A DNA stretch of 62,963 bases, from IMG/VR virus record IMGVR_UViG_3300042199_000105, positions 1 through 62,963 of that record. One strand, 5' to 3'. Position 1 is the first letter of the stretch; every line of letters begins with the position of its first letter. This document shows, piece by piece, positions 44,565 through 60,628 of this stretch. This DNA is from a virus. Taxonomy: Duplodnaviria; Caudoviricetes. A model generated the notes under the pieces. The model saw only the letters and a program-made list of their open reading frames with translations. It did not search any database and had not been told where the DNA came from. The translations under genes and the position numbers were made by a program.

Positions 44565-46108
44565 TTAAAATCATCCTCGGACATTTGCTGTGCTACTCTA
44601 TTGCCTGTTTTTGGATCAATATGGTGTTTAAAACCCATAGCTGGCATTGGAGGTTTTTCTTCTATACCAGTCTTAGTTAAAAACTCCATAGGAGTTGTAT
44701 CTAGTATTTGTTTATAAACGTGAACAGCTAAAGCCATACTCATAATTAGGTCATCATGGTGATTCTTTTCAGCTTCAACTTTTCCGTTTTCAGTTATTAT
44801 AAATGTAGTAAGTTCATTAGCAGTTCTTGCAGAGTTAATTTTAATTAAGTTAGTTCTTATAGCTTCTTCTAGTTCAGCAAGAATAGTTTCTCTATTCTTA
44901 GCAGTTACTAGGAATCCAAAGTCGCCTTTTTCATCAGCCCAAAGATTTTCGTATTCGTAGTTATTATAGAGCCAGTCAATTAAATTATTTCCTATAGTAT
45001 TGCGTTCACAAACTATAGGAGCTACATTATATAGCATACCTTCATTCATTAAAATTTTAGCAAAATCATTTATTGCTGTTCTATTTGAATAAAACTCAGC
45101 TACCTGTTGTCCATTATACATATTAATAATATGGAAAGCAGAATAATCTCGATCTCTACCTAAAGATACATCGCACGCAATAACATAAGAATAGTGAGGT
45201 TGAGGATCTTGCCAAACTCTCATTCTATTGTTATACTTAGTATAATAATCTTCACTAGTTTGAGCCACTACTTGTTTTAAGATCTCACCCTCAATGTAAG
45301 TATCGCCTGTGCCTAAGAATGAACATTCATATTCTTGCAACCACTGTTTGGTTGGCATATTAGCTTTAGTGGTTTCTTCCCACTTATTAATATCCAACCC
45401 TTTTTTAGTCATCTCTTCGTAGAGATTTGAAAAGTTAGGGTTATACCGATACTCAGGGTGCTCTTGCCATTTGATATCAATTGCATTAAACGCATTCTGC
45501 TTGCTTATGGCATTCTGATATACTTCGTGATACCAATTACCTACGCCATTAACTGTAGAAAGAACAAAGGCTCGACCACCTGTTGAAATGATAGGATAAA
45601 CTGCTGCCCAAATAGTATCAATGTTTTCAATGAACGCAGCTTCGTCAATAATAAGTAAAGATCCTGCAAGTGAACGACCTGATTGTTTACCTGAGGGTCT
45701 AGACTTAATTACCGAATTAGTTTTAAGCTTGAGTGTGTGTTTGTTATCTTCGATTATTCCTGGTTTTAGGAATTCTGGAAGCTCGTCGTACATAAGTTTA
45801 ATTCTATCAAGTACTTCGGTCGATTCTGCGTCGCCTTTTGATAGAATTACAATAGACTTATGCTTTTGGAAGATTGCCATCCACAAAGAATAAGCAGCGG
45901 CGATAGTAGTGCATCCAGCCTGTCTAAACTTCCTAAGGATATTAAATCTATAACCTTGAAGTTCTTGAATAATACGTTCTTGGAATGGATATAACTTAAA
46001 TGGAACCAAACCTCTAACAGGGTGTGTAACTTTTATGTAGGTTGAGATAAAATGTACAGGGTCAACCGAACATCGCTTAAATTCTTCTAATAATTTTTGG
46101 TTTTCCAT
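44549..46108 (-). CDS. terL: Terminase large subunit (T4 gp17-like)
   Basis: LYPFQ, KFRQAGCTT Walker A, LIIDEAAF Walker B, STVNG, DVSLG...DYSA and HDDLIM nuclease motifs. Confidence 0.97.
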   Translation of the reverse strand: MENQKLLEEFKRCSVDPVHFISTYIKVTHPVRGLVPFKLYPFQERIIQELQGYRFNILRKFRQAGCTTIAAAYSLWMAIFQKHKSIVILSKGDAESTEVLDRIKLMYDELPEFLKPGIIEDNKHTLKLKTNSVIKSRPSGKQSGRSLAGSLLIIDEAAFIENIDTIWAAVYPIISTGGRAFVLSTVNGVGNWYHEVYQNAISKQNAFNAIDIKWQEHPEYRYNPNFSNLYEEMTKKGLDINKWEETTKANMPTKQWLQEYECSFLGTGDTYIEGEILKQVVAQTSEDYYTKYNNRMRVWQDPQPHYSYVIACDVSLGRDRDYSAFHIINMYNGQQVAEFYSNRTAINDFAKILMNEGMLYNVAPIVCERNTIGNNLIDWLYNNYEYENLWADEKGDFGFLVTAKNRETILAELEEAIRTNLIKINSARTANELTTFIITENGKVEAEKNHHDDLIMSMALAVHVYKQILDTTPMEFLTKTGIEEKPPMPAMGFKHHIDPKTGNRVAQQMSEDDFKWLMR

Positions 46109-46142
46109 AAAAATTTTTCATTACACTACATTATTATAGTAT

Positions 46143-46835
46143 ATGAATATACACGCCATAATATGTACTAGAGATAGAAACAATATATCCAAGACTACGG
46201 ATAAATTACTTAGCTTCCTTACGGGATGTGGAATTAAAGTATATTTAATGTCGGGAGCTAAGTCTATTTTTGCTGCTTATAAGGGTGCATTTGAAAAAAT
46301 CAATCCAGCAGATGATGATGGTATTATTTTTTGTCACGATGACATAGAAATTCGTGATATTAAGGAAGAATTTGTAAAAAAGTTCCAAGATTTACTAAAT
46401 TTACCAGAAACAGGCTTCATCGGACCAGCAGGAACTACCTATTTAAGCGAAAATGCTGTTTGGTGGGACAAAGATATATGGGCAGCAGGTAAACATAGAG
46501 GCAAAGTTAGCCATATTAATCCTCAAGGACGCGAATATGTCACTTTTTATGGCCTTCCAGGCGATGTAGTAGTGCTAGATGGTGTATTTTTAGCAGCAAA
46601 AGCCAAAACTATCAGACAAGTTGGCCTAGATAAGCCAGATTACTTCGAGGGTGAGTGGGATTTTTACGATATTTACTTCACAACGAAGGCTTTTTCAATG
46701 GGATTCTCAAATAGAATCTTAAGTATGGATGTTTTACACAACTCTAGAGGTGAATTAGTAGGTCGAGAGTCGTGGCATAAGAACCGTGAAGCCTTTATTA
46801 AGCATCATGAGTTCCCAATCAAGCTCGAAGATTGA
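46143..46835 (+). CDS. Glycosyltransferase family 2-like protein
   Basis: SIFAAY, IFCHDD, VVLDGVFLA, WDFYD motifs. Confidence 0.82.
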   Translation: MNIHAIICTRDRNNISKTTDKLLSFLTGCGIKVYLMSGAKSIFAAYKGAFEKINPADDDGIIFCHDDIEIRDIKEEFVKKFQDLLNLPETGFIGPAGTTYLSENAVWWDKDIWAAGKHRGKVSHINPQGREYVTFYGLPGDVVVLDGVFLAAKAKTIRQVGLDKPDYFEGEWDFYDIYFTTKAFSMGFSNRILSMDVLHNSRGELVGRESWHKNREAFIKHHEFPIKLED

Positions 46836-47033
46836 TTATTTCTTCTTAGAAGACTTCTTAAGGACTGGAGGTTCCTCAATTTTTGGTTCTTCAACCACTA
46901 TTGGAGCCTGTTCAACCACAGGATCAGCTAATTCCTGATCAGAAATCTTCCAAGCTCTCTTCATTATTCGGTAGCGCGATGAAGTTGGTTTCATATTTTT
47001 AAGTTCTTGTATTCTTTGTTCTCTATTTAACAT
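46836..47033 (-). CDS. Small hypothetical protein
   Basis: 65 aa, AGGAG RBS, preceded by CCTAGATA late-promoter-like motif. Confidence 0.6.
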   Translation of the reverse strand: MLNREQRIQELKNMKPTSSRYRIMKRAWKISDQELADPVVEQAPIVVEEPKIEEPPVLKKSSKKK

Positions 47034-47073
47034 AAAATTATCTCCTAATTTATCATATCTAGGTCAGATTTCG

Positions 47074-47162
47074 ATTGGAGTCCCTTAATATTTTAATTGG
47101 AGTCCCTTAAAGTTAATGGATGTTAGCATCTATGGCTCCGTTAGCCCCCCGTTAGGAGTCCC
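47074..47162 (+). repeat. GGAGTCCC direct repeats at the AT-to-GC boundary
   Basis: ATTGGAGTCCCTTAA at 47074-47088 and 47096-47110; GGAGTCCC at 47155-47162. Confidence 0.85.
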
Positions 47163-47210
47163 ATCGACGCGATTTTTTCCGGCGAACGTGATAAAAAAAA
47201 CTTTTTTCGC

Positions 47211-47244
47211 TTGCTTTCGCTTGACCCTATGCTATAATGACCCC
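47211..47244 (+). promoter_or_regulatory. Sigma70-type promoter, leaderless
   Basis: TTGCTT-16-TATAAT with extended TG; ATG 6 nt downstream at 47245. Confidence 0.8.
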
Positions 47245-47421
47245 ATGAGCAACACGCACTACGCCGACTACACCTACTCCCCCGTGGAACGCTTCGAGAT
47301 CGCGGAGGGCGATAGCATCCGATGCCAAGGGTGCTACGATACGGGTATCACGGATGAGGCGCACTATTGCACCTGTGAGAATGGCAGGCTCGAAGCCAAG
47401 CGTGCAGAGGAGATGGCATGA
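47245..47421 (+). CDS. Small Cys-containing early protein
   Basis: MSNTHY...CQGC...CTC; leaderless start. Confidence 0.75.
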   Translation: MSNTHYADYTYSPVERFEIAEGDSIRCQGCYDTGITDEAHYCTCENGRLEAKRAEEMA

Positions 47422-47633
47422 GCGAGATCGAGTTTCGCAAGGGCGACATCCTATTGATTCGTGGAAGCACTTCCCCTAATAAGGGATTGCCCCCTATTGA
47501 TAAAACCCTCATAGCAGACGAGGATGGGTTTAGTGGCGGGTGGGATGTTTATGATGGGCACGATCCCGCTACGGGCGAGGAAGTTAGCTTCTACGGATGG
47601 AATGTCCGAGAGCGAGGCGTGCATCTGCCATAA
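47418..47633 (+). CDS. Hypothetical early protein
   Basis: GAGGAG RBS; stop codon TAA lies inside repeat 1. Confidence 0.75.
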   Translation: MSEIEFRKGDILLIRGSTSPNKGLPPIDKTLIADEDGFSGGWDVYDGHDPATGEEVSFYGWNVRERGVHLP

Positions 47634-47748
47634 TGGCAGGGCTGGCGGCTCGGTCGCCATAAGTCTAGTGCCCACAATAACTTAGAGCAACCTGAAAACT
47701 TTCCTAGTTTCCCCTTGCAATACTCCCAGAGTATGCTATAATGAGCGC
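47625..47748 (+). repeat. Promoter-cassette module 1 (divergent copy)
   Basis: CTGCCATAATGGCAG; TAAGT-N15-ACTTA; TTGCAA-16-TATAAT; ATG at 47749. Confidence 0.88.
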
Positions 47749-47988
47749 ATGAAGAACATCATCATCAACATCGCGGGTGCGGTTATCATTCTCGGTTTTG
47801 TCGCGTCAGCTTGGTGGGCTGGTTACGCTGCGGGATCCTCTGACGCGGAGATTGATCGCGCGGAAGTGCGCCACCACACTCTTGAAGGTCGCATCGTCAA
47901 GGTTATCATGCGCGACGGTACGACGATCTGGATCGACGCGAACGAACCGCGTGACCACTCGATCCCCTTCATGCGCCAGAGCGACTGA
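47749..47988 (+). CDS. Small membrane-anchored protein
   Basis: N-terminal hydrophobic helix; leaderless ATG. Confidence 0.75.
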   Translation: MKNIIINIAGAVIILGFVASAWWAGYAAGSSDAEIDRAEVRHHTLEGRIVKVIMRDGTTIWIDANEPRDHSIPFMRQSD

Positions 47989-48027
47989 GCTGTGGATGAA
48001 GCGACCCTGGCTTGAAAGGGCTTTGAT

Positions 48028-48148
48028 CTGCCATAATGGCAGCGCAGCCGCCCGCGCGTGCGTAACCCTAGTGCCAGCAAACACTTAGGACGAAAAGATT
48101 TTGCCAGAAAGCCCTTGCATTCTAGCCTAGATGTGGTATAATGACCCC
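48028..48148 (+). repeat. Promoter-cassette module 2
   Basis: CTGCCATAATGGCAGCGCAGCCGCCCGCGCG...TTGCAT...TGGTATAAT; ATG at 48149. Confidence 0.95.
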
Positions 48149-48370
48149 ATGAGCAACAAGACACGCTACACGGTTTTCATCGGAAACTACCGCACGGAAC
48201 AGACGGTCAAGACCTTCCCGCAGGAACAGTATGAGCGCGCCAAGGCTTACGCCAGCAGGATCGCGGAAGGCTATTCTGCCTGCTTGTACGATGAAACGCA
48301 GACCGCTTGCGATCATTGGTGGAGCGAGGATTCGGGGGTTTATGTTGAAGTCCGCTCGGAGGCGTGCTAG
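48149..48370 (+). CDS. Hypothetical early protein
   Basis: MSNKTRY...; leaderless ATG after module 2. Confidence 0.78.
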   Translation: MSNKTRYTVFIGNYRTEQTVKTFPQEQYERAKAYASRIAEGYSACLYDETQTACDHWWSEDSGVYVEVRSEAC

Positions 48371-48451
48371 AATGAGCCGCATGAAGCAGTTCAAGGATCG
48401 TGCCACCTTCTGTTTCTTCCTCTTCCTCTTCAGCCTTACTTTCTTCATCTG

Positions 48452-48628
48452 ATGAAACTCATTTGCCCTTTTTGCGACGGGGATGATCTAGCGCAGGAAG
48501 TTACTTTCCTGATTGATCCTAACTCTCTCAAGAATGTTTACGAAATCTACCCCGCTGAACTGACGTTTCAGGATTTTTTCTGGTGCAATAGTTGCGACGA
48601 AGAAATCAACCCTAAGGAGATCGAATGA
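48452..48628 (+). CDS. Small Zn-finger protein (58 aa, absent from ORF track)
   Basis: MKLICPFCDG...FWCNSCDEEINPKEIE*, overlaps the next ATG. Confidence 0.72.
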   Translation: MKLICPFCDGDDLAQEVTFLIDPNSLKNVYEIYPAELTFQDFFWCNSCDEEINPKEIE

Positions 48629-48825
48629 AGATTCACAAGTCCGTTACGATTGAACGTATTCTCGACGCGGTTGAGAATGATGAGATGCTCGGAATCTGCG
48701 CTAGTTGCGGCGAGGATTATGAGTCCAATGTTGAACCCGATGCCCGCAGGATTGAATGCGGCGAATGCGGCGAGTGTGCCGTGTACGGTGCGGAGGAACT
48801 TCTCATTATGACGGGGGCTTTCTAA
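48625..48825 (+). CDS. Small Zn-ribbon protein
   Basis: CASC...VEPDA...CGEC; AAGGAG RBS. Confidence 0.8.
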   Translation: MKIHKSVTIERILDAVENDEMLGICASCGEDYESNVEPDARRIECGECGECAVYGAEELLIMTGAF

Positions 48826-48827
48826 GC

Positions 48828-48948
48828 CTGCCATAATGGCAGCGCAGCCGCCCGCGCGGCCCTAAGTGCAGTAGTGGCAAAGACTTAGGACGAAAAGATT
48901 TTCCCCTTTTCCTATTGCTTTCCCTTGCGGTTATAGTATAATGAGCGC
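48828..48948 (+). repeat. Promoter-cassette module 3
   Basis: Dyad; CCTAAGT-N15-ACTTAGG; TTGCTT-16-TATAAT; ATG at 48949. Confidence 0.95.
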
Positions 48949-49278
48949 ATGAACACGGAAGCCCAAAAGATCTACGACATCATCTCGAACTTCATCAACA
49001 ATCAGGAAGTGCCCCTGAGCAGCACGGATAGCATTCCCGAGAACGAGAAGGCTGTGATCCTCACGATGGAAGATCACGGCACGGGGTGGAAGTGGAAGGT
49101 GTACGAAGGGCAAGTCACGAAGTACCCCGACGGCGAGACCACTTGCACGATGTTCGGTCGTGTGGACGGTTTCGAGTCCGAGCTTGGCTACTTCGATTTG
49201 CAAGAAATCATTGAAGCCACGATTCAGCCCTCGGGGTTCTCCTCTCTGTTCTTCAATGGTCGCACTATGGGAGCCTGA
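48949..49278 (+). CDS. DUF2958-like protein
   Basis: W.W...E...FGRVDGFESELGYFDL motif. Confidence 0.65.
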   Translation: MNTEAQKIYDIISNFINNQEVPLSSTDSIPENEKAVILTMEDHGTGWKWKVYEGQVTKYPDGETTCTMFGRVDGFESELGYFDLQEIIEATIQPSGFSSLFFNGRTMGA

Positions 49279-49282
49279 AATA

Positions 49283-49447
49283 ATGTCCAAGAAGAAGATG
49301 CCCACCTTTAGATTGTTTCGTGACGGTGAGTTGATTATGACGGGCACAGAGTTTCAACTCATGCGCTATGTTCATTCCAAACACTCTTTCTCGTTCGATC
49401 ACGCTCTCAAGTACGAGGGCTATAGTTGGGAGCAAGTCCTGCCATAA
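49283..49447 (+). CDS. Hypothetical early protein
   Basis: MSKKKMPTF...QVLP*; stop codon lies inside repeat 4. Confidence 0.7.
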   Translation: MSKKKMPTFRLFRDGELIMTGTEFQLMRYVHSKHSFSFDHALKYEGYSWEQVLP

Positions 49448-49558
49448 TGGCAGCGCAGCCGCCCGCGCGGCCCTAAGTGCAGTAGTGGCAAGCACTTACG
49501 GCAAAAGATTTTCCCCTTTTCCCCTTGCTTTCCCTTGCGGTTAGGGTACAATGAGCGC
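49439..49558 (+). repeat. Promoter-cassette module 4
   Basis: Dyad; TAAGTGC...GCACTTA; TTGCTT-16-TACAAT; ATG at 49559. Confidence 0.95.
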
Positions 49559-49768
49559 ATGAAGAAAACGAATGACTACGAAATGACCTTCGAGCAGTTT
49601 TCGGAAGCCCTCTCTAAGCGTTGCATCCCGCAGGATCGCCACGAAGAATACTTCGAGGATGGCTATAGCGTTAGCGACGCTTGGGATGATTGGGAGTGGC
49701 AAAAGCAAGTGGATGAATACGCTCAAGCCCTCGCGGATCGTAACTCCGCAATCCTCGCACAAGCCTGA
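49559..49768 (+). CDS. Acidic hypothetical early protein
   Basis: MKKTNDYE...; leaderless ATG. Confidence 0.78.
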   Translation: MKKTNDYEMTFEQFSEALSKRCIPQDRHEEYFEDGYSVSDAWDDWEWQKQVDEYAQALADRNSAILAQA

Positions 49769-49779
49769 AAGGTTAGCAC

Positions 49780-49995
49780 ATGATTATCAACCGAGTATCC
49801 CCGTTCACGGGCAAGGTCAACACGATGAATCTTCCCATCACGGAAGAGCAGATCGCACGTTGGAAGCGTGGTGCTTACGCGCAAGACGTTTGGCCCGATC
49901 TCACCCCTTCGCAGCGTGAGTTCCTTATCTCGGGATCTACCGAAGAGGATTGGGAAACCTACATTACGGGAGCGTTTGAGGAGGAGGATGATTGA
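49780..49995 (+). CDS. Phage hypothetical protein
   Basis: 71 aa; SPFTGKVNTM...QDVWPDLTPSQREFLISG; AAGG RBS. Confidence 0.78.
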   Translation: MIINRVSPFTGKVNTMNLPITEEQIARWKRGAYAQDVWPDLTPSQREFLISGSTEEDWETYITGAFEEEDD

Positions 49996-50009
49996 GCTTT
50001 GACTTTTCC

Positions 50010-50131
50010 CTGTCATAATGGCAGCGCAGCCGCCCGCGCGGCACTAAGTCTAGTAGCCACAAGCACTTACGCTCAAAAGATTTTCCCCAAGAGGGTTTGA
50101 CTTTTCCCTAGAGTATAGTATAATATACCCC
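50010..50131 (+). repeat. Promoter-cassette module 5
   Basis: CTGTCATAATGGCAG variant; TTGACT-16-TATAAT; ATG at 50132. Confidence 0.93.
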
Positions 50132-50353
50132 ATGAACATCAAAACGCACTACGTCGTGTACCTCGAAACGCCCCACAAGACCCCCAGTTACGGTCGGCAG
50201 GTGATTGATACGACCAATCCCCGCGATGCCATGATCGTGTTCCAGACTCTTGCCAAGTATTACGATTGCAAGAAGGAGTACGGACCTTCTGGCCGACAGA
50301 ATGAGAACGGTGATACGATGATTTTCATCAACGCTGTCGCTCACCTTAGCTGA
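50132..50353 (+). CDS. Hypothetical early protein
   Basis: 73 aa, leaderless ATG. Confidence 0.78.
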   Translation: MNIKTHYVVYLETPHKTPSYGRQVIDTTNPRDAMIVFQTLAKYYDCKKEYGPSGRQNENGDTMIFINAVAHLS

Positions 50354-50364
50354 GGAGAAATCAC

Positions 50365-50538
50365 TTGAACGAGTTTGATGAGGACATGATTCAGGATGCG
50401 ATCAACGAAGCCCTTCGGACCCTTCTCAAGAACGGTCACGTTTCTTCGGGACTCAATGAAAGCGGCGAAATCGTTTTCTGGTGTTCGGACGAGGACTGGG
50501 CGAAATACAATCAGGAGAAGCACATTTACGAACTCTAA
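50365..50538 (+). CDS. Acidic 57-aa protein (absent from ORF track)
   Basis: GAGGAG RBS then TTG; MNEFDEDMIQDAINEALR...HIYEL*. Confidence 0.65.
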   Translation: MNEFDEDMIQDAINEALRTLLKNGHVSSGLNESGEIVFWCSDEDWAKYNQEKHIYEL

Positions 50539-50631
50539 GGAGTTCGGAGAAGGAATGTTCGACGGACAAGAAAGTATGTTGATAAAGGTTTTCGCCTATT
50601 ATCTCATTTTCTTTCTTGTCTGTTGGGTTTT

Positions 50632-50713
50632 GGGGGTGTAACGGTTTTTCGACTAGCTAATGCCCGAATGGGAACTAGCTCGGACAGGGGTTCAACTCCC
50701 CTCACCTCCACCA
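50632..50713 (+). ncRNA. Minimal tmRNA-like RNA (tRNA-like domain only, 82 nt)
   Basis: 5' GGGGGTG-TAACGGTTTTTCGAC; 3' GGAC-AGGGG-TTCAACT-CCCCT-CACCTCC-ACCA; G3-U70 wobble, no D stem, ~30-nt hairpin where the mRNA domain should be. Confidence 0.85.
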
Positions 50714-50719
50714 TACAAC

Positions 50720-50840
50720 CTGCCATAATGGCAGCGCAGCCGCCCGCGCGAGCGCAAGTGCAGTAGTGGCAAAGACTTAGGACGAAAAGATTTTGCCAGA
50801 AAGCCCTTGCATTGTGCCTAGGTTATGGTATAATGAGCGC
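50720..50840 (+). repeat. Promoter-cassette module 6
   Basis: Dyad; TTGCAT...TGGTATAAT; ATG at 50841. Confidence 0.95.
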
Positions 50841-51221
50841 ATGAACAACGACAACAACAACAAGCGTTCGCATCGTACTCTCGAACAGATCAAAGCTGAG
50901 ACGGAGGCCCGACTGGCTTCGCTTCGTGAGCGTCTGGCTCGCAAGGATGCCAAGAATGACCCGACCATGCAGTCGCTCATGGAACAACGCGAGTTCTTGC
51001 AGAAGCAGATCCGCGAGTGCAAGAAGATCCTCGGGGAAGGTCCGCAGTCTGCCAAGGTTCGCGCCCAAAAGCATCAGGCTTGGATCGACCTCATTCGGCA
51101 AGAGGCGACGACTGCTGAGATGGACCTCGAAGTGTTGCAGTCCAATCTTGAGCGATTGGACGAAAACATCCAGAGCAAGATTGCGGCGATGACTATCAAG
51201 GATTCGCAAGCGTCCTGCTAG
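50841..51221 (+). CDS. Coiled-coil early protein
   Basis: MNNDNNNKR...; heptad-rich; leaderless ATG. Confidence 0.8.
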   Translation: MNNDNNNKRSHRTLEQIKAETEARLASLRERLARKDAKNDPTMQSLMEQREFLQKQIRECKKILGEGPQSAKVRAQKHQAWIDLIRQEATTAEMDLEVLQSNLERLDENIQSKIAAMTIKDSQASC

Positions 51222-51291
51222 TGGCGATGGCTCTGGCTATGGCGATGGCGGTAGGAGGGTTCTGGCAGAGTGACCAGACCCTCCTGCCCTC

Positions 51292-51412
51292 CTGCCATAA
51301 TGGCAGCGCAGCCGCCCGCGCGCGCGTAACCCTAGTGCCAGCAAACACTTAGGACGAAAAGATTTTCCCCTTTTCCTATTGCTTTCCCTTGCGGTTATGG
51401 TATAATAAGCGC
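51292..51412 (+). repeat. Promoter-cassette module 7
   Basis: Dyad; TTGCTT-16-TATAAT; ATG at 51413. Confidence 0.95.
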
Positions 51413-51709
51413 ATGAACAACAACAACAACAACAAGATGGTTCCCGTTATCATCACCACGTCACACAGGGGCGTTTTCTTCGGTTACACGAAGGACTACA
51501 GCGGCGACACGATCACGCTCAAGGATGCACGAATGTGCATTTACTGGAGTGCCGACGTCAAGGGCTGCTTTGGTCTCGCAGCGACTGGTCCGTCGAGCGG
51601 ATGCCGTATCGGACCCAAGGCGGATATCGTCGTCCGCAACGTGACCGCAGTCGCGCTGTGCAGCGATGCTGCTGTTGCTGCTTGGGAGAAGGCTCCTTGG
51701 AGCAACTGA
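51413..51709 (+). CDS. Sm/LSm-fold-like protein (DUF6948-like), copy in array
   Basis: VIITTSHRGVFFG...ITLKDAR resembles the Sm1 motif; identical in protein to 57373..57681 from NKMVP onward. Confidence 0.7.
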   Translation: MNNNNNNKMVPVIITTSHRGVFFGYTKDYSGDTITLKDARMCIYWSADVKGCFGLAATGPSSGCRIGPKADIVVRNVTAVALCSDAAVAAWEKAPWSN

Positions 51710-51720
51710 TCCGAGGCGAG

Positions 51721-51963
51721 ATGAGCCGTGAAGGCTATGGCTTTGGCTATGGCTATGGAGATGGCTATGGCTCTGGATATGGCTATGGCGATGGAGATGG
51801 CTATGGCTATGGCTATGGAGATGCCTATGGCTCTGGATATGGCTATGGCGACGGATTTAGCTATGGCTATGGCGGTGGAGATGGCTATGGCGATGGCTAT
51901 GGCCGTGGCTTTGGCGATGGCGATGGCGATGCAGAGCAGGATATAGTATGCAAGAACAACTGA
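51721..51963 (+). CDS. Gly-Tyr/Asp repeat peptide A1
   Basis: MSREGYGFGYG...AEQDIVCKNN; GAGG RBS. Confidence 0.7.
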   Translation: MSREGYGFGYGYGDGYGSGYGYGDGDGYGYGYGDAYGSGYGYGDGFSYGYGGGDGYGDGYGRGFGDGDGDAEQDIVCKNN

Positions 51964-52247
51964 TCCGAGGCGAGATCAGCCGTGAAGGCGCTGACTATGG
52001 CTATGGCGATGGCTATGGCTATGGCTCTGGATATGGCTATGGCGATGGCAATGGCTGTGGCGAAGGCTATGGCGATGGCGACGGATTTAGCTATGGCTAT
52101 GGCGATGGAGATGGCTCTGGCTATGGCCGTGGCTTTGGCTATGGCCGTGGCTCTGGCTATGGCTCTGGCTATGGCTATGGCTATGGCTATGGCGATGGAG
52201 ATGGCTCTGGCTATGGCGAAGATGGTAGAGCGATTATGGCAGAGTGA
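51948..52247 (+). CDS. Gly-Tyr/Asp repeat peptide A2
   Basis: MQEQLIRGEISREG...; AGGA RBS inside the previous ORF. Confidence 0.7.
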   Translation: MQEQLIRGEISREGADYGYGDGYGYGSGYGYGDGNGCGEGYGDGDGFSYGYGDGDGSGYGRGFGYGRGSGYGSGYGYGYGYGDGDGSGYGEDGRAIMAE

Positions 52248-52257
52248 CCAGTCCCTC

Positions 52258-52380
52258 CTGCCATAATGGCAGCGCAGCCGCCCGCGCGTGCGTAACCCTA
52301 GTGCCAGCAAACACTTAGGACGAAAAGATTTTTCCAGAAAGCCCTTGCAGAATGGCCCTCAGCATGGTATAATACCCCGC
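52258..52380 (+). repeat. Promoter-cassette module 8
   Basis: Dyad; TTGCAG-17-TATAAT; ATG at 52381. Confidence 0.95.
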
Positions 52381-52581
52381 ATGAACGAAGATGAATACCT
52401 CGATGCGGCGTGGGAAGATGCGATCTCTGGGTACGACTACGAACAGGAGGCGTACTATGATCGTGACCCCTACGCCGACCGAGCCGACTATGATCTCTGG
52501 GAACAGAATCAGGTCGATCAGGATCGGGAAGGCTACGAGGACTACTACGAAGCCGACGAAGATTCTGAAGATTTCTCTTGA
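52381..52581 (+). CDS. Extremely acidic, Tyr-rich small protein (possible DNA mimic)
   Basis: MNEDEYLDAAWEDAISGYDYEQEAYYD...; 66 aa dominated by D/E/Y. Confidence 0.75.
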   Translation: MNEDEYLDAAWEDAISGYDYEQEAYYDRDPYADRADYDLWEQNQVDQDREGYEDYYEADEDSEDFS

Positions 52582-52612
52582 TTTCCCCTCCAACCTAAGG
52601 TACAATACGCAC
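52578..52612 (+). promoter_or_regulatory. Stand-alone leaderless sigma70-type promoter
   Basis: TTGATT-17-TACAAT-6-ATG; upstream dyads of the module are absent. Confidence 0.75.
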
Positions 52613-52858
52613 ATGAACAACAACAACATCGAACAGCTTTCCCTCAATCCGACTCAAGCCAAGGTTCACGGGCTCTCCGTGCAGGTTGGCGAACTCTTTG
52701 CCGATCTGTACCGCTCGTCTCCGACTGGGCTGGAAACCGAGTACGCTCTCAATGCGTACAAGAATCTGCGCCGCATTCTTCCGCGTGAGCGAGCTTTTGG
52801 GCGTCACATCGGTCGCCGTGCGGCTTGGCACGCTACTCAGGGGAACCGCACTCGGTGA
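52613..52858 (+). CDS. Hypothetical early protein
   Basis: MNNNNIEQ...; leaderless ATG. Confidence 0.75.
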   Translation: MNNNNIEQLSLNPTQAKVHGLSVQVGELFADLYRSSPTGLETEYALNAYKNLRRILPRERAFGRHIGRRAAWHATQGNRTR

Positions 52859-52859
52859 C

Positions 52860-53043
52860 CTTGGACTCGTCCGTGCGAGTATAAATAGGCTAATAGGCAC
52901 GGCGCGCCACCTCTCGCATAAGAGAGGCTGGGATAGCAGCCCCGCAGGGATAGCGGGAACCTCGAAACCTCTAGACGTAGAGGGACCGACAGAGGGTGCA
53001 TATTAGGTAGGTGCAGTCGGGGCACCTACCCCCTAACACTCTG
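52860..53043 (+). ncRNA. Candidate structured noncoding RNA/DNA element
   Basis: Six closely packed hairpins, no convincing ORF, TATAAATA at 52880-52887. Confidence 0.5.
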
Positions 53044-53160
53044 CCATAATGGCAGCGCAGCCGCCCGCGCGGCCCTAAGTCTAGTAATGCCAAGCACTTA
53101 CGGCAAAAGATTTTCCGATTTTCCCCTTGAAACTAGCTCAGGGTGTGGTATAATGCCCGC
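53041..53160 (+). repeat. Promoter-cassette module 9
   Basis: Dyad; TTGAAA-16-TATAAT; ATG at 53161. Confidence 0.95.
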
Positions 53161-53811
53161 ATGACCTACACGACCACTAAGTTCCGCAAGTCGATCAAGT
53201 CTCCCGCTACCGCTAATGTCCTCAAGTCGGGCGACAATAACGCCAAGCTCGGATTCAAGATTGAATCTAAGCGTTGGAATGGCAAGCGTCTCTATTCTCT
53301 CACGCTCACCGAGCGCGATACTTGCCCGCGTGACTGCCATCATTGGGACGATTGCTATGGCAACAATATGCCATTCGCTCACCGATTCAGCATTGACGGA
53401 TTGACCGACAAACTGCGTATTGAGATTCCCGCACTACTCAATAAGCACAAGGCTGGAATCGTTATTCGATTGCACGTTTTGGGTGATTTCTATTCGCCCG
53501 AATACGTTGCATTTTGGGATGAGATGCTCGCTACTTATCCCGAACTGTGCATTTTCGGTTATACTGCTCGCCGTGTTGATTCGGACATTGGCAAGGCAGT
53601 ATACATTATGAATCTGCGATACGGTGATCGTTGCGTTATTCGTTATTCGCGCAATCAATCATTCGAGACTATCGGCCAATCGTTTGCAGCCGAAGAATCG
53701 TTTGATGGTCAATCTTTCACCTGCCCCGAACAGACTGGAAAGCTCGATTCGTGTGCAGATTGTGGATTGTGCTGGACTGTTACTAAGACTGTTCGTTTCC
53801 TCTCACACTAA
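53161..53811 (+). CDS. Phage GP88-like Cys-rich protein (possible Fe-S enzyme)
   Basis: NAKLG, TCPRDCHHWDDCY, IRLHVLGDF, GYT, TCPEQ...CADCGLCW motifs. Confidence 0.65.
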   Translation: MTYTTTKFRKSIKSPATANVLKSGDNNAKLGFKIESKRWNGKRLYSLTLTERDTCPRDCHHWDDCYGNNMPFAHRFSIDGLTDKLRIEIPALLNKHKAGIVIRLHVLGDFYSPEYVAFWDEMLATYPELCIFGYTARRVDSDIGKAVYIMNLRYGDRCVIRYSRNQSFETIGQSFAAEESFDGQSFTCPEQTGKLDSCADCGLCWTVTKTVRFLSH

Positions 53812-53822
53812 GGAATAAACTA

Positions 53823-54011
53823 ATGGAAACCACGTTTTCGATTATGGTTTTGAATGATGGCAGCACCTACTCGTCAGTCGCGGGCTGTCGTATTCTGGTA
53901 TTGACCAAAGAGGCTTTTGATTTGCTCGAAAATGGCGAAGTGGAGATTCATGATTTGGAACACGATTCGCGGAAGTTTGTTCGCCACTTGATCGAGTTTT
54001 CGGGGGATTAG
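53823..54011 (+). CDS. Hypothetical protein
   Basis: 62 aa, AAGGA RBS. Confidence 0.7.
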   Translation: METTFSIMVLNDGSTYSSVAGCRILVLTKEAFDLLENGEVEIHDLEHDSRKFVRHLIEFSGD

Positions 54012-54069
54012 TCCATAATGCAGGAAAGGCTACAGATTCGTAGCTTATCATGCAACATGAATGGGTAGC

Positions 54070-54192
54070 CTGCCATTTTGGCAGTGCCGCCGCCTGCGCG
54101 CATGTAAGTCTAGTAGTGGCAAGCACTTACGGCAACCGTCCAAAAATAAAACTCAGATTTATGCGGAAACTTGGCATGGGCTATGCTACAAT
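54070..54192 (+). repeat. Promoter-cassette module 10 (terminal, divergent)
   Basis: CTGCCATTTTGGCAG; GTAAGT-N15-ACTTAC; ends TTGGCATGGGCTATGCTACAAT; no leaderless gene follows. Confidence 0.85.
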
Positions 54193-54270
54193 GTACCCCT
54201 GTTTCGAGCTTTTCAGAGTAGAAACAAAAAAAGACTCCATGAGCTTTTGGCCCTTGGAGTCTTTTCACCT

Positions 54271-54350
54271 ACACAACATATTGTGGGTGGGTCTGATATT
54301 TATACGGGATTTTCCCTAATCAGATCAGATTCATATACAATATATTGTGG
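54271..54350 (+). promoter_or_regulatory. Two NrdR-box-like palindromes
   Basis: ACACAACATATTGTGG (54271-54286) and ATACAATATATTGTGG (54335-54350) versus consensus acaCwAtATaTwGtg. Confidence 0.55.
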
Positions 54351-54364
54351 TGTAGGTGTGCAAG

Positions 54365-54428
54365 TGAGGATGGCAGGAGTCGAACCCACGAATGCTCCGC
54401 TACGATTTTACGATTGAGCTTCATCCCC
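54365..54428 (-). tRNA. tRNA-like element lacking the anticodon arm (pseudo-tRNA)
   Basis: GGGGATG/CATCCTC acceptor stem, GCTC/GAGC D stem, GTGGG-TTCGACT-CCTGC T arm; only ATTC between D and T arms; no encoded CCA. Confidence 0.6.
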
Positions 54429-54538
54429 ATTCAGTATTATTTAGTCCTCATATCATAGAAGCTCAAAGCAAATTTTAAACTAAATTCTGAACTCTGATTG
54501 TATTTTGTGTATGGCGGTTCTGATTTGGTGTGAGTTAA

Positions 54539-55684: not shown

Positions 55685-55888
55685 TTAGTTGCTCTTGCAT
55701 ACTATATCCTCTTTTCCATAGCCATAGCCATAGCAATAGCCATAGCCATAGCCAGAGCCAGAGCCATCGCCATAGCCATAGCCATAGCCGTCGCCATAGC
55801 CATAGCCATAGCCATAGCCATCGCCATAGCCATAGCCATATCCAGAGCCATAGCGGCTCATTTCACCTCGGATCAGTTGCTCTTGCAT
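55685..55888 (-). CDS. Gly-Tyr repeat peptide B7
   Basis: MQEQLIRGEMSRYG...KEDIVCKSN. Confidence 0.7.
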   Translation of the reverse strand: MQEQLIRGEMSRYGSGYGYGYGDGYGYGYGYGDGYGYGYGDGSGSGYGYGYCYGYGYGKEDIVCKSN

Positions 55889-56184
55889 ACTATATCCTCT
55901 TCTCCATAGCCATAGCAATAGCCGTAGCCAGAGCCATCTCCATCGCCATCTCCATCGCCATCTCCATCGCCATAGCCATCTCCGTCGCCATAGCCATATC
56001 CAGAGCCATAGCCATCTCCATAGCCACAGCCAAAGCCATAGCCATCTCCGTCGCCATAGCCATATCCAGAGCCATCGCCATCTCCATAGCCACAGCCAAA
56101 GCCAAAGCCATAGCCATCGCCATAGCCATAGCCACAGCCACAGCCGTCGCGGATCATTTCGCCACGAATTAGTTGCTCTTGCAT
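55873..56184 (-). CDS. Gly-Tyr repeat peptide B6
   Basis: MQEQLIRGEMIRDG...EEDIVCKSN. Confidence 0.7.
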   Translation of the reverse strand: MQEQLIRGEMIRDGCGCGYGYGDGYGFGFGCGYGDGDGSGYGYGDGDGYGFGCGYGDGYGSGYGYGDGDGYGDGDGDGDGDGDGSGYGYCYGYGEEDIVCKSN

Positions 56185-56261
56185 ACTATATCCTCTTCTC
56201 CATCGCCATAGCCATCGCCATAGCCCTCACCATTTTTAGTCATTTTACCTCGAATGAGCAT
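56169..56261 (-). CDS. Short Gly-Tyr peptide B5
   Basis: MLIRGKMTKNGEGYGDGYGDGEEDIVCKSN; degenerate junction. Confidence 0.55.
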   Translation of the reverse strand: MLIRGKMTKNGEGYGDGYGDGEEDIVCKSN

Positions 56262-56554
56262 ATATCCTCTTTTCCATAGCCAGAGCCAAAGCCACGGCCA
56301 TAGCCAGAGCCACGGCCATAGCCAGAGCCATAGCCAGAGCCACAGCCGTAGCCGTGACCATAGCCATAGCCATCGCCATAGCCAGAGCCAGAGCCGTAGC
56401 CTTCGCCAAAACCAAAGCCATAGCAATAGCCATAGCCATCGCCAGAGCCATAGCCATCTCCATCGCCATAGCCATAGCCATAGCCGTCGCCATAGCCATA
56501 GCCATAGCCATAGCCGTCGCGGATCATTTCGCCACGAATTAGTTGCTCTTGCAT
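56240..56554 (-). CDS. Gly-Tyr repeat peptide B4
   Basis: MQEQLIRGEMIRDG...KEDICSFEVK. Confidence 0.7.
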   Translation of the reverse strand: MQEQLIRGEMIRDGYGYGYGYGDGYGYGYGDGDGYGSGDGYGYCYGFGFGEGYGSGSGYGDGYGYGHGYGCGSGYGSGYGRGSGYGRGFGSGYGKEDICSFEVK

Positions 56555-56838
56555 ACTATATCCTTCTCTGCATCGACATCGCCATCGCCAAAGCCACGGC
56601 CATCGCCATAGCCACGGCCATAGCCAGAGCCAGAGCCATAGCCACAGCCGTAGCCGTGGTCATAGACAGAGCCATAGCCATCGCCATAGCCATAGCCATA
56701 GCCATAGCAATAGCCATAGCCAGAGCCAGAGCCATAGCCATCTCCATCGCCATAGCCATAGCCAAAGCCAGAGCCATCGCCATAGCCATATCCGTCGCCT
56801 TTGCGACTCATTTTGCCACGGATCAGTTGCTCTTGCAT
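56539..56838 (-). CDS. Gly-Tyr repeat peptide B3
   Basis: MQEQLIRGKMSRKG...EKDIVCKSN. Confidence 0.7.
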   Translation of the reverse strand: MQEQLIRGKMSRKGDGYGYGDGSGFGYGYGDGDGYGSGSGYGYCYGYGYGYGDGYGSVYDHGYGCGYGSGSGYGRGYGDGRGFGDGDVDAEKDIVCKSN

Positions 56839-57092
56839 ACTATATCCTGCTCTGCATCGCCATCGCCATCGCCAAAGCCACGGCCATAGCCATCGCCATA
56901 GCCATCTCCGTCGCCATAGCCACAGCCATAGCCATAGCCATAGCCAGAGCCATAGCCATAGCCATAGCCCAAGCCATCGCCATAGCCATAGCCATAGCCA
57001 GAGCTATAGCCACGGCCATAACCATAGCCATAGCAATAGCCATAGCCATCGCCTTTACGGCTCATTTCGCCACGAATTAGTTGCTCTTGCAT
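56823..57092 (-). CDS. Gly-Tyr repeat peptide B2
   Basis: MQEQLIRGEMSRKG...EQDIVCKSN. Confidence 0.7.
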   Translation of the reverse strand: MQEQLIRGEMSRKGDGYGYCYGYGYGRGYSSGYGYGYGDGLGYGYGYGSGYGYGYGCGYGDGDGYGDGYGRGFGDGDGDAEQDIVCKSN

Positions 57093-57361
57093 ACTATATC
57101 CTTTTCTCCATCGCCATAGCCATCGCCATAGCCATCGCCATCGCTATCGCCATCGCCATCGCTATCGCCAAAGCCATAGCCGTCGCCAAAGCCATAGCCA
57201 GAGCCAGAGCCATCTCGATCGCCATAGCCATAGCCATCGCCAAAGCCATCTCCATCGCCATAGCCATCTCCATCGCCATAGCCATCTCCATCGCCATAGC
57301 CATAGCCGTCGCCAAAACCATAGCCAGAGCCAGAGCCAAAGCCATAGCCTTCACGGCTCAT
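57077..57361 (-). CDS. Gly-Tyr repeat peptide B1
   Basis: MSREGYGFGSG...EKDIVCKSN; directly after the Sm-like gene. Confidence 0.7.
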   Translation of the reverse strand: MSREGYGFGSGSGYGFGDGYGYGDGDGYGDGDGYGDGDGFGDGYGYGDRDGSGSGYGFGDGYGFGDSDGDGDSDGDGYGDGYGDGEKDIVCKSN

Positions 57362-57372
57362 CTCGCCACGGA

Positions 57373-57681
57373 TCAGTTGCTCCAAGGAGCCTTTTCCCAA
57401 GCAGCAACAGCAGCATCGCTGCACAGCGCGACTGCGGTCACGTTGCGGACGACGATATCCGCCTTAGGCCCGATACGGCATCCGCTCGACGGACCAGTCG
57501 CTGCGAGACCAAAGCAGCCCTTGACGTCGGCACTCCAGTAAATGCACATTCGTGCATCCTTGAGCGTGATCGTGTCGCCGCTGTAGTCCTTCGTGTAACC
57601 GAAGAAAACGCCCCTGTGTGACGTGGTAATGATAACGGGAACCATCTTGTTAACTGCCTTCTTAACGATTTTCTTAGCCAT
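57373..57681 (-). CDS. Sm/LSm-fold-like protein (DUF6948-like), probable donor copy
   Basis: AAGGA RBS; MAKKIVKKAVNKMVPVIITTSHRGVFFG... Confidence 0.75.
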   Translation of the reverse strand: MAKKIVKKAVNKMVPVIITTSHRGVFFGYTKDYSGDTITLKDARMCIYWSADVKGCFGLAATGPSSGCRIGPKADIVVRNVTAVALCSDAAVAAWEKAPWSN

Positions 57682-59801: not shown

Positions 59802-59953
59802 TTTTGCTCCTTGGCACAGGTTTCACAAAGCACAGCAGACTCACCGACGTTGGCGGATTGGATAGCCTTGGTGAGAGAGGCAACCCAGACGCACGGGAGG
59901 AACGTGATGTTCTTCGCGCAATCGTCACAGTAGCGTTGTGTCGTGTTCTTCAT
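59798..59953 (-). CDS. 51-aa Zn-finger protein (absent from ORF track)
   Basis: MKNTTQRYCDDC...LCETCAKEQK*; leaderless ATG; GTGA overlap with the next gene. Confidence 0.72.
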   Translation of the reverse strand: MKNTTQRYCDDCAKNITFLPCVWVASLTKAIQSANVGESAVLCETCAKEQK

Positions 59954-59989
59954 GGCGCGTATTATACCATGTATTATCGGCTAGGTCAA
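59954..59989 (-). promoter_or_regulatory. Sigma70-type leaderless promoter
   Basis: TTGACC-17-TATAAT with extended TG; ATG 7 nt downstream. Confidence 0.85.
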
Positions 59990-60092
59990 GGGGTATCTTT
60001 AGAAAATTTGGAGATTTTTATGTGTTTCATTAGTGAAAAGAGGGACCAGACGATCACTCCCGCACACAAAATTAACACAGCAAGGTCTAGAA

Positions 60093-60575
60093 TCATGCGG
60101 TCCACCATTCGGGCTTCTTAGCATTGGGCCACTCCCACTTCGCAAATCCAGCCTTGGCTCCCTTGTAGTATGCTCGGTATGCTTCTACCGCATCAGCACG
60201 CTTATACTCGTCGGGCATAGCTTGGGCAAACGGGGTCAAACCCTTGCTAGGCATACCTACGGGAACCGTACCAAGGATGCTTGCAAGTTTTTTCCAAGAT
60301 TCGTGAGTCTTGTTACGACGCATCACGAATTCCAGATTGAGGTTATTGAACAGGTGCCAAGCCCATTCGTAGTTAGCCACAGATTCACGAATCCAGATGG
60401 TGCAAGGGTGGTTAACGTGAGCTTTTTTGTAAACCAGAGCAGCTTCTGGAGTATTATAAATATGATGGGCAGTAGACATCATCTGAGCAGTCTCAAGAAT
60501 CATCTTGGGAACGTGCTTATCACAATGCATCTGCGCTGCAATCTTAGGATCTTTGTCCAAAATGAAGATGTTCAT
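60093..60575 (-). CDS. Pyrimidine-dimer DNA glycosylase family (DenV-like) protein
   Basis: MNIFILD.DP..AA..HCDKHV.KMILE.AQ and H.NHPC.IW motifs; upstream TTGAAA-17-TATTAT-7-ATG. Confidence 0.8.
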   Translation of the reverse strand: MNIFILDKDPKIAAQMHCDKHVPKMILETAQMMSTAHHIYNTPEAALVYKKAHVNHPCTIWIRESVANYEWAWHLFNNLNLEFVMRRNKTHESWKKLASILGTVPVGMPSKGLTPFAQAMPDEYKRADAVEAYRAYYKGAKAGFAKWEWPNAKKPEWWTA

Positions 60576-60628
60576 GCCCTACATAATAGCATGGGTTACG
60601 CCCGTTTTCAATTAAAAAATAAAATATT

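Follow-up and report, generated by a model that had tools for sequence, protein, structure and literature searches.

The window analysed here is the complete virus record IMGVR_UViG_3300042199_000105, of 62,963 bases (CheckV completeness 56%), which carries downstream of its structural genes an array of ten repeated elements, called modules in what follows, that alternate with small cassettes of cargo genes. In our judgement this array is quite probably the early-gene region, hyperplastic in character, of a tailed freshwater phage that has not been cultivated, and its cassettes are gained, lost and permuted among relatives at the modules. As far as can be read from their sequence, the modules appear to be a leaderless and longer variant of the early promoter/stem-loop elements (PeSLs) of T4-type phages, with a three-part palindromic 5′ block and in a distant lineage.

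The ten modules, each about 125 nt long, start at 47625, 48028, 48828, 49439, 50010, 50720, 51292, 52258, 53041 and 54070, and repeat and pattern searches recovered every one of the starts that an earlier note on this DNA, made from the letters alone, had proposed. Read from 5′ to 3′, a module contains a palindrome (H1), a GC box, a TAAGT-N15-ACTTA dyad, the element AAAAGATTTT (an A/T-rich, UP-like tract around positions -57 to -47), a -35 of the TTG type, a -10 that reads TATAAT or TACAAT and, after 6-7 nt, an ATG. The palindrome CTGCCATAATGGCAG is present in eight exact copies, with one mismatch in module 5 and two in module 10; when up to three mismatches are allowed, both strands of the window hold 23 matches against 1.07 expected, a count that none of 100 shuffles reached. 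The left half of the dyad is altered to TAACC in modules 2, 7 and 8 and to CAAGT in module 6, so that the description of dyad and GC box in the earlier note stood except for module 1, where the GC box is inverted. Nine of the ten modules own a -35/-10 pair (TTGnnn-16/17-TATAAT, frequently with a TG extension), and in these nine, as had been claimed, the promoter leads to an ATG at 120-124 nt from the palindrome, the spacer between -10 and ATG being 6 nt in seven of them and 7 nt in two. The combined -10/ATG motif has eight matches in the window, where 0.10 would be expected. On its upstream side, the 5′ block adjoins the end of the last gene or RNA of the preceding cassette, and the TAA of the palindrome loop indeed serves as the stop codon of two open reading frames (ORFs), 47418-47633 and 49283-49447. 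Module 10 keeps the 5′ block with a TTT loop, the change that had been reported for it; to this we add that its 3′ half differs, with an extended -10 (TGCTACAAT) and no ATG, and that a short RNA-sized stretch and a strong two-way intrinsic terminator follow. The block is missing from three further -10/ATG units within the array or next to it, whose ATGs are at 47245 (the first promoter), 48381 and 52613 (both internal). The features of the array are the following.

47195..47247 (+): first array promoter, block-less; -10 TATAAT at 47233-47238, 6-nt spacer, g0a ATG at 47245; the GC jump begins here
47245..47633 (+): cassette 0 cargo; g0a 47245-47421, 58 aa, Cys-rich; g0b 47418-47633, 71 aa, stop in the module 1 loop
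47625..47748 (+): module 1; palindrome H1, inverted GC box, TAAGT..ACTTA, TTGCAA-16-TATAAT, ATG at 47749
47749..47988 (+): cassette 1 cargo g1; 79 aa, N-terminal membrane helix, weak PHROG spanin-like match
48028..48148 (+): module 2
48149..48825 (+): cassette 2 cargo; g2a 48149-48370; internal TAGAAT promoter and 23-codon leaderless mini-ORF 48381-48452; g2c 48452-48628; g2d 48625-48825
48828..48948 (+): module 3
48949..49447 (+): cassette 3 cargo; g3a, 109 aa; g3b 49283-49447, stop in the module 4 loop
49439..49558 (+): module 4
49559..49995 (+): cassette 4 cargo; g4a, 69 aa; g4b, 71 aa, phrog_20898
50010..50131 (+): module 5; palindrome CTGTCA..TGGCAG; TTGACT-16-TATAAT
50132..50713 (+): cassette 5 cargo; g5a, g5b, a small membrane ORF and the 82-nt tmRNA-like (transfer-messenger-RNA-like) RNA 50632-50713, ending 6 nt before module 6
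50720..50840 (+): module 6
50841..51291 (+): cassette 6 cargo; g6, 126 aa, coiled-coil-like; 70-nt remnant of a Gly-Tyr-repeat gene tail, 51222-51291
51292..51412 (+): module 7
51413..52257 (+): cassette 7 cargo; DUF6948 gene 51413-51709; two Gly-Tyr-repeat ORFs
52258..52380 (+): module 8; 75-nt exact stretch in common with module 2
52381..53040 (+): cassette 8 cargo; g8a, acidic, 66 aa; internal TACAAT promoter and leaderless g8b 52613-52858; Pistol ribozyme 52865-52937; about 100 nt of structured RNA
53041..53160 (+): module 9; TTGAAA-16-TATAAT
53161..54011 (+): cassette 9 cargo; g9a, 216 aa, Pfam GP88, phrog_2554; g9b, 62 aa
54070..54200 (+): module 10, terminal type; TTT loop, extended -10, no ATG
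54229..54265 (no strand given): canonical two-way intrinsic terminator closing the array; A-tract, 11-bp stem, U-tract; z -3.88

The repeat is not confined to this record. A DNA similarity search against 50,697 GenBank phage records found no match to the array, and a 25-nt module pattern was present in 12 metagenome contigs; a hidden Markov model built from the modules of the window located 35 full-length modules across 12 metagenome contigs, always in a single orientation within each contig. The exact 25-nt pattern had no match in IMG/VR or in genome contigs, and a looser pattern combined with a search for g9a led to five IMG/VR records (L016, L017, L018, L020 and L025) with arrays of 3-8 diverged modules, L019 carrying a low-GC variant of the module. 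In at least five of the IMG/VR relatives the array lies, as in the window, downstream of the portal, terminase and glycosyltransferase genes and ends near g9a. The large terminases (TerL) of these relatives are 68-81% identical to that of the window, and at this distance the only cargo in common is g3a, g6, g8b, g9a, g2c and g4b. Among the genomes of 185,579 species, a looser palindrome pattern gave 17 single matches in assorted bacteria, and nhmmer gave four partial hits and no full module; of these genome-contig matches only L072, a 1.8-kb contig binned into a bacterial metagenome-assembled genome, looks related.

Comparison with these relatives reveals how the cassettes move. Cassettes 1 and 7 are both missing from L009, an independent contig with about 90% identity to the window, in which an unrelated ORF also takes the place of g0b. 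A three-way alignment of the cassette-7 junction shows that L009 matches the window through the end of cassette 6 and into module 7 as far as AAAAGATTTT, from where it continues with the promoter half of module 8 and g8a; this switch from module 7 to module 8 locates the crossover within about 75 nt of shared module sequence. Four differences between the window and L009 fall inside the array, and three of them end at modules (g0b, cassette 1 and cassette 7), the remaining one being internal to cassette 2. The order of the cassettes is also permuted. In the window it is g4, g5 with the tmRNA-like RNA, g6, g7, g8 with the Pistol ribozyme and g9; L005 and L008 have g6 with the tmRNA-like RNA, g8 with Pistol, g9 and g4; L010 and L006 place g8 with Pistol ahead of g6, and L002 and L012 have g9 followed by g4. 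Cassette 4 in particular, which precedes g5 in the window, comes after g9 in L005, L008, L002, L012 and L010. The earlier note had named an identical cargo order in relatives, with no gain or loss at module boundaries, as the observation that would speak against its proposal of PeSL-type promoter cassettes that shuffle genes; the missing cassettes of L009 and the permuted orders of the pairs L005/L008, L010/L006 and L002/L012 are the opposite of this, and they support the proposal.

Moreover, the modules themselves are mosaic, with two 5′ types and two 3′ types found in all four combinations (modules 2, 7, 3 and 6), and they evolve in concert. Similarity among their 5′ halves is 0.852 for paralogues within a genome (n=72) and lower, at 0.800, for orthologues by position in other lineages (n=37; p 3e-5), and their 3′ halves track the downstream cargo (0.696 vs 0.641; p 0.004), both p-values being rough because the pairs compared are not independent. 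Modules share exact stretches of 40-75 nt, which would let them act as portable homology for recombination, and the recombination machinery of the phage would then delete, insert, duplicate and reorder cassettes at the modules. In this regard, a RecA/UvsX-family gene is present in two of four related fragments, and a UvsW-like helicase is encoded in the window.

The second trait of the module family lies in its 3′ half, which comprises an A/T-rich UP-like tract and a predicted, near-consensus sigma-70 promoter. A start codon at the predicted transcription start seems to be a design rule of the family. The window and its relatives supplied 76 distinct modules after removal of three duplicates and of one lying at the end of a contig, and in 68 of them an ATG that opens an ORF of at least 25 codons follows the -10, at a distance of 6 nt in 51 modules and of 7 nt in 17; among the other eight, five have by eye the same geometry with an off-consensus -10, two have no ATG and one has a 5-codon ORF. 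With a start codon at the expected point of transcription initiation, the mRNA for the first gene in a cassette would have no leader, and this gene would be translated only from its own promoter; later genes within cassettes have ribosome-binding sites visible in the sequence. The promoters, their early timing and leaderless translation are in this sense predicted features, and circular intermediates of the cassettes would be too. Leaderless-type units without a palindromic block are also found on the minus strand at 59949-59998 (TTGACC-17-TATAAT) and 60575-60611 (TTGAAA-17-TATTAT), each with 7 nt between -10 and ATG, so that such starts extend beyond the array. Three copies of GGAGTCCC lie within about 90 nt (47065-47160, +) upstream of the first, block-less promoter, and this triplet may serve the first cassette as a control site of its own.

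The array stands out from the rest of the genome in composition, a feature absent from the earlier note. The backbone block at 1-47,100 has about 33% GC and encodes on the minus strand structural and replication genes including a portal, with a large terminase about 31% identical to those of the T4 group. Pfam matches in the window include T4_baseplate and UvsW_N, the latter in the UvsW-like helicase, as well as a primase and a PD-(D/E)XK nuclease; the phage appears to be a distant T4-type relative, outside the T4-like subfamily of the papers on PeSLs. At 47.2 kb the GC content steps from about 38% to 56%, and it stays around 52% until 54.2 kb, which makes the array a sharp compositional island. 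GC content at third codon positions (GC3) is 0.52-0.76 for 18 array genes (47245-54011) and 0.13-0.27 for six structural genes (1-46108), with intermediate values of 0.50-0.59 for genes at 57.7-60.6 kb. The rise in GC over the array recurs in the relatives and also in G006, a phage unrelated to that of the window.

Such steps of 20 points at 47.2 and 54.2 kb are what one would see if a GC-rich array had been misjoined to a low-GC phage and the orders scrambled by the collapse of repeats, and the data are wholly metagenomic, with k=31 contigs of other runs breaking at modules. The independent contig L009 nevertheless crosses the low-GC/high-GC junction at about 90% identity, following window 45698-46902 and then the array, and a 7,393-nt contig of another run bridges the left junction, covering 46900-48056 and continuing leftward. 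Fourteen DNA runs contain at least half of the sampled words of junction plus array (the 20 rows listed correspond to 13 studies). Five IMG/VR relatives repeat the terminase-glycosyltransferase-array-g9a layout together with the GC rise, the longest exact repeat (75 nt) is shorter than the usual final k-mers and read-pair spans, and two contigs show each cassette order. A chimera is therefore extremely improbable and already largely refuted: because relatives place the array alike, and L009, the fourteen runs and the 7.4-kb contig support the junction, the locus is a conserved hyperplastic region of a phage family. Three joints seen in contigs of other runs lie within Gly-Tyr repeats, with sides of 22-46 nt, and were taken as repeat effects; the contig tables of the two DNA runs compared in this way, X2 and X3, are near-identical, and the two may be one data set.

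In the 5′ block, the pairing of the dyads is real, in that 90.5% of cells are paired against 25-44% when the partners are slid, and it rests on conserved sequence. The notion that the dyads work as RNA structures gained no support from covariation: for both dyads the proportion of paired cells equals that of shuffles (90.5% vs a mean of 90.6%), with both-side change in one pair vs 1.7 in shuffles. Taken as an RNA structure, the module retains in RNAalifold only the first palindrome (-7.1 kcal/mol), with none of six pairs compensatory, and this candidate was rejected. So was the GC box as a lineage-specific hairpin, suspected from L016, L017 and L020 (mean z -0.10, with one of 51 segments beating shuffles), and so were, by eye and against their consensus sequences, sigma-54 (-24/-12) and LexA-box readings of the palindrome, which fit poorly. 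The TAAGT..ACTTA dyad folds better than shuffles in 15 of 72 cases. No Rfam family matched at the modules at E<=1, the microRNA and isrG rows lying in Gly-Tyr repeat DNA and far below gathering scores. The GC box occurs in both orientations, and its counterpart in L019 flips as an exact reverse complement between modules.

The palindrome also occurs in G006 (L080, C1:20000-38000), a complete 138,480-bp phage with terminal repeats and a terminase unrelated to that of the window. It holds 12 copies of CTGCCA-N3-TGGCAG in 13 kb, against none for a control pattern, and shares no cargo or backbone proteins with the window. The copies often form pairs 29 nt apart with a GC box between them, upstream of strong promoters (TTGACA/TAGAAT) with ordinary leaders, which makes the palindrome and the leaderless trait separable; the contig L072 has a palindrome-GC box-palindrome unit of the same type. 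Extra TGCCAAA half-sites and long C-run/G-run elements were also seen nearby in G006. On the other hand, the 5′ block is missing from the first array promoter and from two internal promoters, yet it is present after the last cassette, and in this it resembles a 3′-end element of the upstream unit. With no compensatory change, weak folds, a GC box in both orientations and the palindrome in G006, we favour, tentatively and at somewhat under an even chance, a block that is recognised on DNA by a sequence-specific protein, possibly host-encoded, and serves the early promoters as operator or insulator. A set of RNA 3′-end or attenuator hairpins is a serious but less probable candidate, and mere recombination homology is rather unlikely.

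The favoured recognition site can be pushed further, to a locus that is primarily a regulon in which the palindromic block is the operator array of one host or phage regulator switching all early promoters together, selection for its binding maintains the likeness of the repeats, and recombination is a by-product. The likeness of the repeats without compensatory change in either dyad, and substitutions in the H1 arms without bias toward G-U-compatible changes on the coding strand, would suit such operators; so would the palindrome pairs of G006 and L072, 29 nt apart and centred about 60 and 90 nt upstream of ordinary leadered promoters, and an ACTTA-to-(-10) distance of 48-50 nt in 53 of 72 modules across lineages. 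We still consider a regulon of this kind improbable, given that no block precedes the promoters at 47233, 48368 and 52601 and that no gene follows the last block, so that the block tracks cassette 3′ ends and not promoters. No candidate regulator was identified, and the palindrome centre, about 115 nt upstream of the start in the window, is far for direct contact with RNA polymerase; the spacing between dyad and promoter, tried as a test of helical phase, has its mode at 48-50 nt; the other spacings, at 38, 56-60 and 68 nt, include many orthologues and do not clearly follow the helical repeat, with about 9-10 of 19 in phase. A regulon is in any case compatible with the shuffling of cassettes and does not contradict it. 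A recombinase or nuclease from the unsampled 44% or so of the genome, or from the host, that recognised the palindrome and/or the TAAGT..ACTTA dyad, and excised and inserted cassettes at these sites, would make the array a site-specific cassette platform. For this speak palindrome arms that are conserved around a variable 3-nt centre (TAA, TTA, TTT, CAA, TTG, AAA), as is typical of protein sites, a conservation of the 5′ block between lineages (0.80) above that of the promoter half (0.64-0.70) or of cargo DNA (67-77%), the two orientations of the GC box and the incompleteness of the record. However, the 63-kb record, at its 56% completeness, has no match to tyrosine recombinases (PF00589, Phage_integrase), serine recombinases (Resolvase) or Y1 transposases (PF01797, Y1_Tnp), as the earlier note had said of the integrase in particular, and tyrosine integrases (PF00589) were found neither in four related fragments, 43-82% complete, nor in the complete G006 with its 12 palindromes. 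The mapped crossover can be placed no more closely than a shared stretch of about 75 nt, in keeping with homologous exchange, mosaic exchange points fall within the promoter half as well, and each cassette has a promoter of its own, unlike integron cassettes. We take a site-specific platform to be very unlikely.

There is also a more ambitious idea, to which we give little credence, that the 5′ block serves as a dedicated signal for a protein which unrelated phages of a single freshwater host have in common, and that it marks cassette borders for targeted breakage or exchange as well as for control; two phage backbones with unrelated terminases carry the block upstream of early promoters. Were the idea true, the arrays would be a promoter-carrying, integrase-free counterpart of integrons, giving different phages access to a common pool of early genes that are leaderless and adapted to the codons of the host. 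As for the hyperplastic early region that we prefer, with PeSL-like exchange in modules, several observations weigh against it. The split between array and backbone, 20 points in GC and 45 in GC3, is unaccounted for by cassette shuffling, and the presence of the palindrome in the unrelated G006 without shared cargo points to a function beyond homology. Modules fold no more stably than shuffles (z -0.07 to -1.79) and contain no canonical terminator or U-tract, none of the 12 terminator-like sites scanned falling in a module, whereas the stem-loops of PeSLs terminate; also unlike PeSLs, the modules have the ATG 6-7 nt after the -10, with no Shine-Dalgarno sequence and no leader. The similarity statistics of the half-modules suffer from the dependence among pairs already mentioned. 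All relatives are metagenome assemblies, in which repeats can misjoin, yet each order is found in at least two independent contigs, parts of L010 excepted. Finally, contigs from RNA libraries match cargo with 0-4 differences (run X16: g2a, g6, g8a and g8b; run X18: g4a, g4b, g8a/b and g9a), and since their depth is 2-6 and they could be DNA carry-over, we do not count them as evidence of expression. High-depth pieces at 50679-50711 have loose ends and represent tmRNA of other organisms.

The cargo itself consists of one to four small ORFs per cassette. Only two of the 19 array proteins scanned reach the Pfam cut-off, as members of DUF6948 and GP88, both families of unknown function, and the few PHROG matches are all to families of unknown or uncertain function; the suggestion that the cassettes carry host-takeover and anti-defence genes is in this light a guess. 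The most widely conserved cargo gene, g9a, occurs at 41 IMG/VR loci, and Atlas places it among GP88 phage clusters. Both g2c and g2d resemble small zinc-ribbon proteins, and in L002 and L010 homologues of g2c are the first gene behind a terminal-type module. The DUF6948 part of cassette 7 is identical at 278 of 282 nt to an inverted, conventionally led copy at 57370-57651, which suggests recent capture or copying. Behind each of these DUF6948 genes lies a set of Gly-Tyr(-Asp) repeat genes, of about 100 aa and arranged head to tail with slight overlap (51700-52247, +; 55685-57424, -), of which cassette 7 has two and the minus strand at least six; their proteins have a conserved start, MQEQLIRGE, and a conserved end, DIVCK(S/N)N.

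That the cargo would include RNAs, as had been claimed, was confirmed by a tmRNA-like RNA and a Pistol ribozyme, both above Rfam gathering scores. The tmRNA-like RNA (50632-50713, +; 82 nt, 61.7 bits) has the tRNA-like domain only, with an acceptor stem carrying a G3:U pair, a T-arm and an encoded CCA, and a 12-nt hairpin in place of the message/pseudoknot part of about 300 nt. It is also found in L004, L005, L008, L009, L010 and L019 (near 5690-5719), with Rfam tmRNA scores of 58-62 bits, and always stops a few bases before a module. A literature search found no description of such an RNA reduced to the tRNA-like domain; it might accept alanine and so act as a decoy in ribosome rescue. The Pistol ribozyme (52865-52937; 42 bits in the window and 54.8-56.7 bits in L005, L006, L008 and L010) stands at the 3′ end of the g8 cassette, from where about 100 nt of well-folding RNA (z -2.78) reach the next module, and its cleavage product could be a small RNA with a 5′-OH end. 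Beyond the terminator, the region 54268-54430 contains a 20-nt inverted repeat (CACCTACACAACATATTGTG ... CACAATATATTGTGGTGTAGGTG), after which a weak match to a tmRNA or tRNA 3′ end (54362-54428, -; 20.1 bits) stays below threshold. ARAGORN found no tRNA in the whole window, and in L010 a full tRNA occupies the matching place after the terminal module.

PeSL-type shuffling has been shown so far in a few cultured T4-like coliphages and vibriophages, and the present locus extends its logic to a far-removed uncultivated freshwater lineage, with natural before and after examples. Three of its features are unexpected together: an ATG that coincides in 68 of 76 modules with the predicted transcription start, an arrangement that would tie translation of the first gene to its own promoter, a palindromic block that recurs in an unrelated 138-kb phage, and the GC3 split. 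The array thereby offers a concrete system for how the accessory-gene regions of phages are built and exchanged, and for whether early genes match the codon pool of the host.

Among known systems, the integron was the comparison drawn in the earlier note. An integron consists of intI, attI, attC sites and the promoter Pc, and its promoterless cassettes are read from that one common promoter; attC sites are alike in structure, with cores RYYYAAC/GTTRRRY. The array of the window resembles it as a directional series of small cassettes between imperfect palindromic repeats, whose content and order vary among relatives. Its repeats, by contrast, are alike in sequence, the dyad cores are TAAGT/ACTTA (AAG/CTT and not AAC/GTT), the cassettes have their own promoters, and exchange occurs in long homology with no integrase. 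An IntI next to the array, attC-type sites and a common promoter, the three defining features compared, are all absent from the 56%-complete record. An integron-like platform in the mechanistic sense is thus not borne out, with no recombinase found, a promoter in each cassette and a crossover in long homology, and the likeness is an analogy only. Repetitive extragenic palindromes and bacterial interspersed mosaic elements (REP/BIME) are palindromic units of bacterial chromosomes associated with REP-associated tyrosine transposases (RAYT, of the Y1 type). Like them, the 5′ blocks are short GC-rich palindromic units that follow stop codons, occur in both orientations and are prone to recombination; unlike them, the units are fused at a near-fixed distance to a promoter, all in one direction, and the incomplete record has no match to the Y1 transposase (PF01797). 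In tailed viruses, a passage of PMC8707807 describes for the halovirus HF2 families of intergenic repeats (58 and 29 bp) that carry promoters for downstream genes. As far as that passage goes, HF2 shares with the window promoter-bearing intergenic repeat families in a tailed virus, and differs in its archaeal host and promoter type and its shorter repeats.

The closest comparison is with PeSLs, which passages of PMC2839356 and PMC4122927 present as small composite elements of the T4-type phages RB49/phi1, T4/PST and KVP40/nt-1, with a strong sigma-70-type promoter, an A/T-rich tract, a terminating stem-loop and a 3′ Shine-Dalgarno sequence with start codon. According to the same passages, PeSLs are found ahead of ORFans in hyperplastic regions, mark the ends of indels that separate close relatives and give rise to mini-circles, and their recombination mechanism was shown experimentally in T4-type coliphages (PMC2839356, PMC4122927). 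Apart from the leaderless start, the modules depart from this description in several respects. They are about 125 nt long, with a three-part 5′ block conserved across lineages and no terminator-like U-tract, and their dyads lie 60-120 nt upstream of the promoter, where those of PeSLs are between or over the -35 and -10; ten of them stand head to tail in 6.6 kb, with two structured RNAs among the cargo and a codon usage far from that of the rest of the genome. In the remaining traits the two agree: both are repeated composite elements with, at the sequence level in our case, a strong sigma-70-type promoter and an A/T-rich upstream tract, with a dyad near the promoter and a position directly after the stop of the upstream gene. 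Both lie in hyperplastic regions, mostly before ORFans, and in both the indels and replacements that distinguish close relatives end in the elements, with no integrase and with the recombination system of the phage itself implied.

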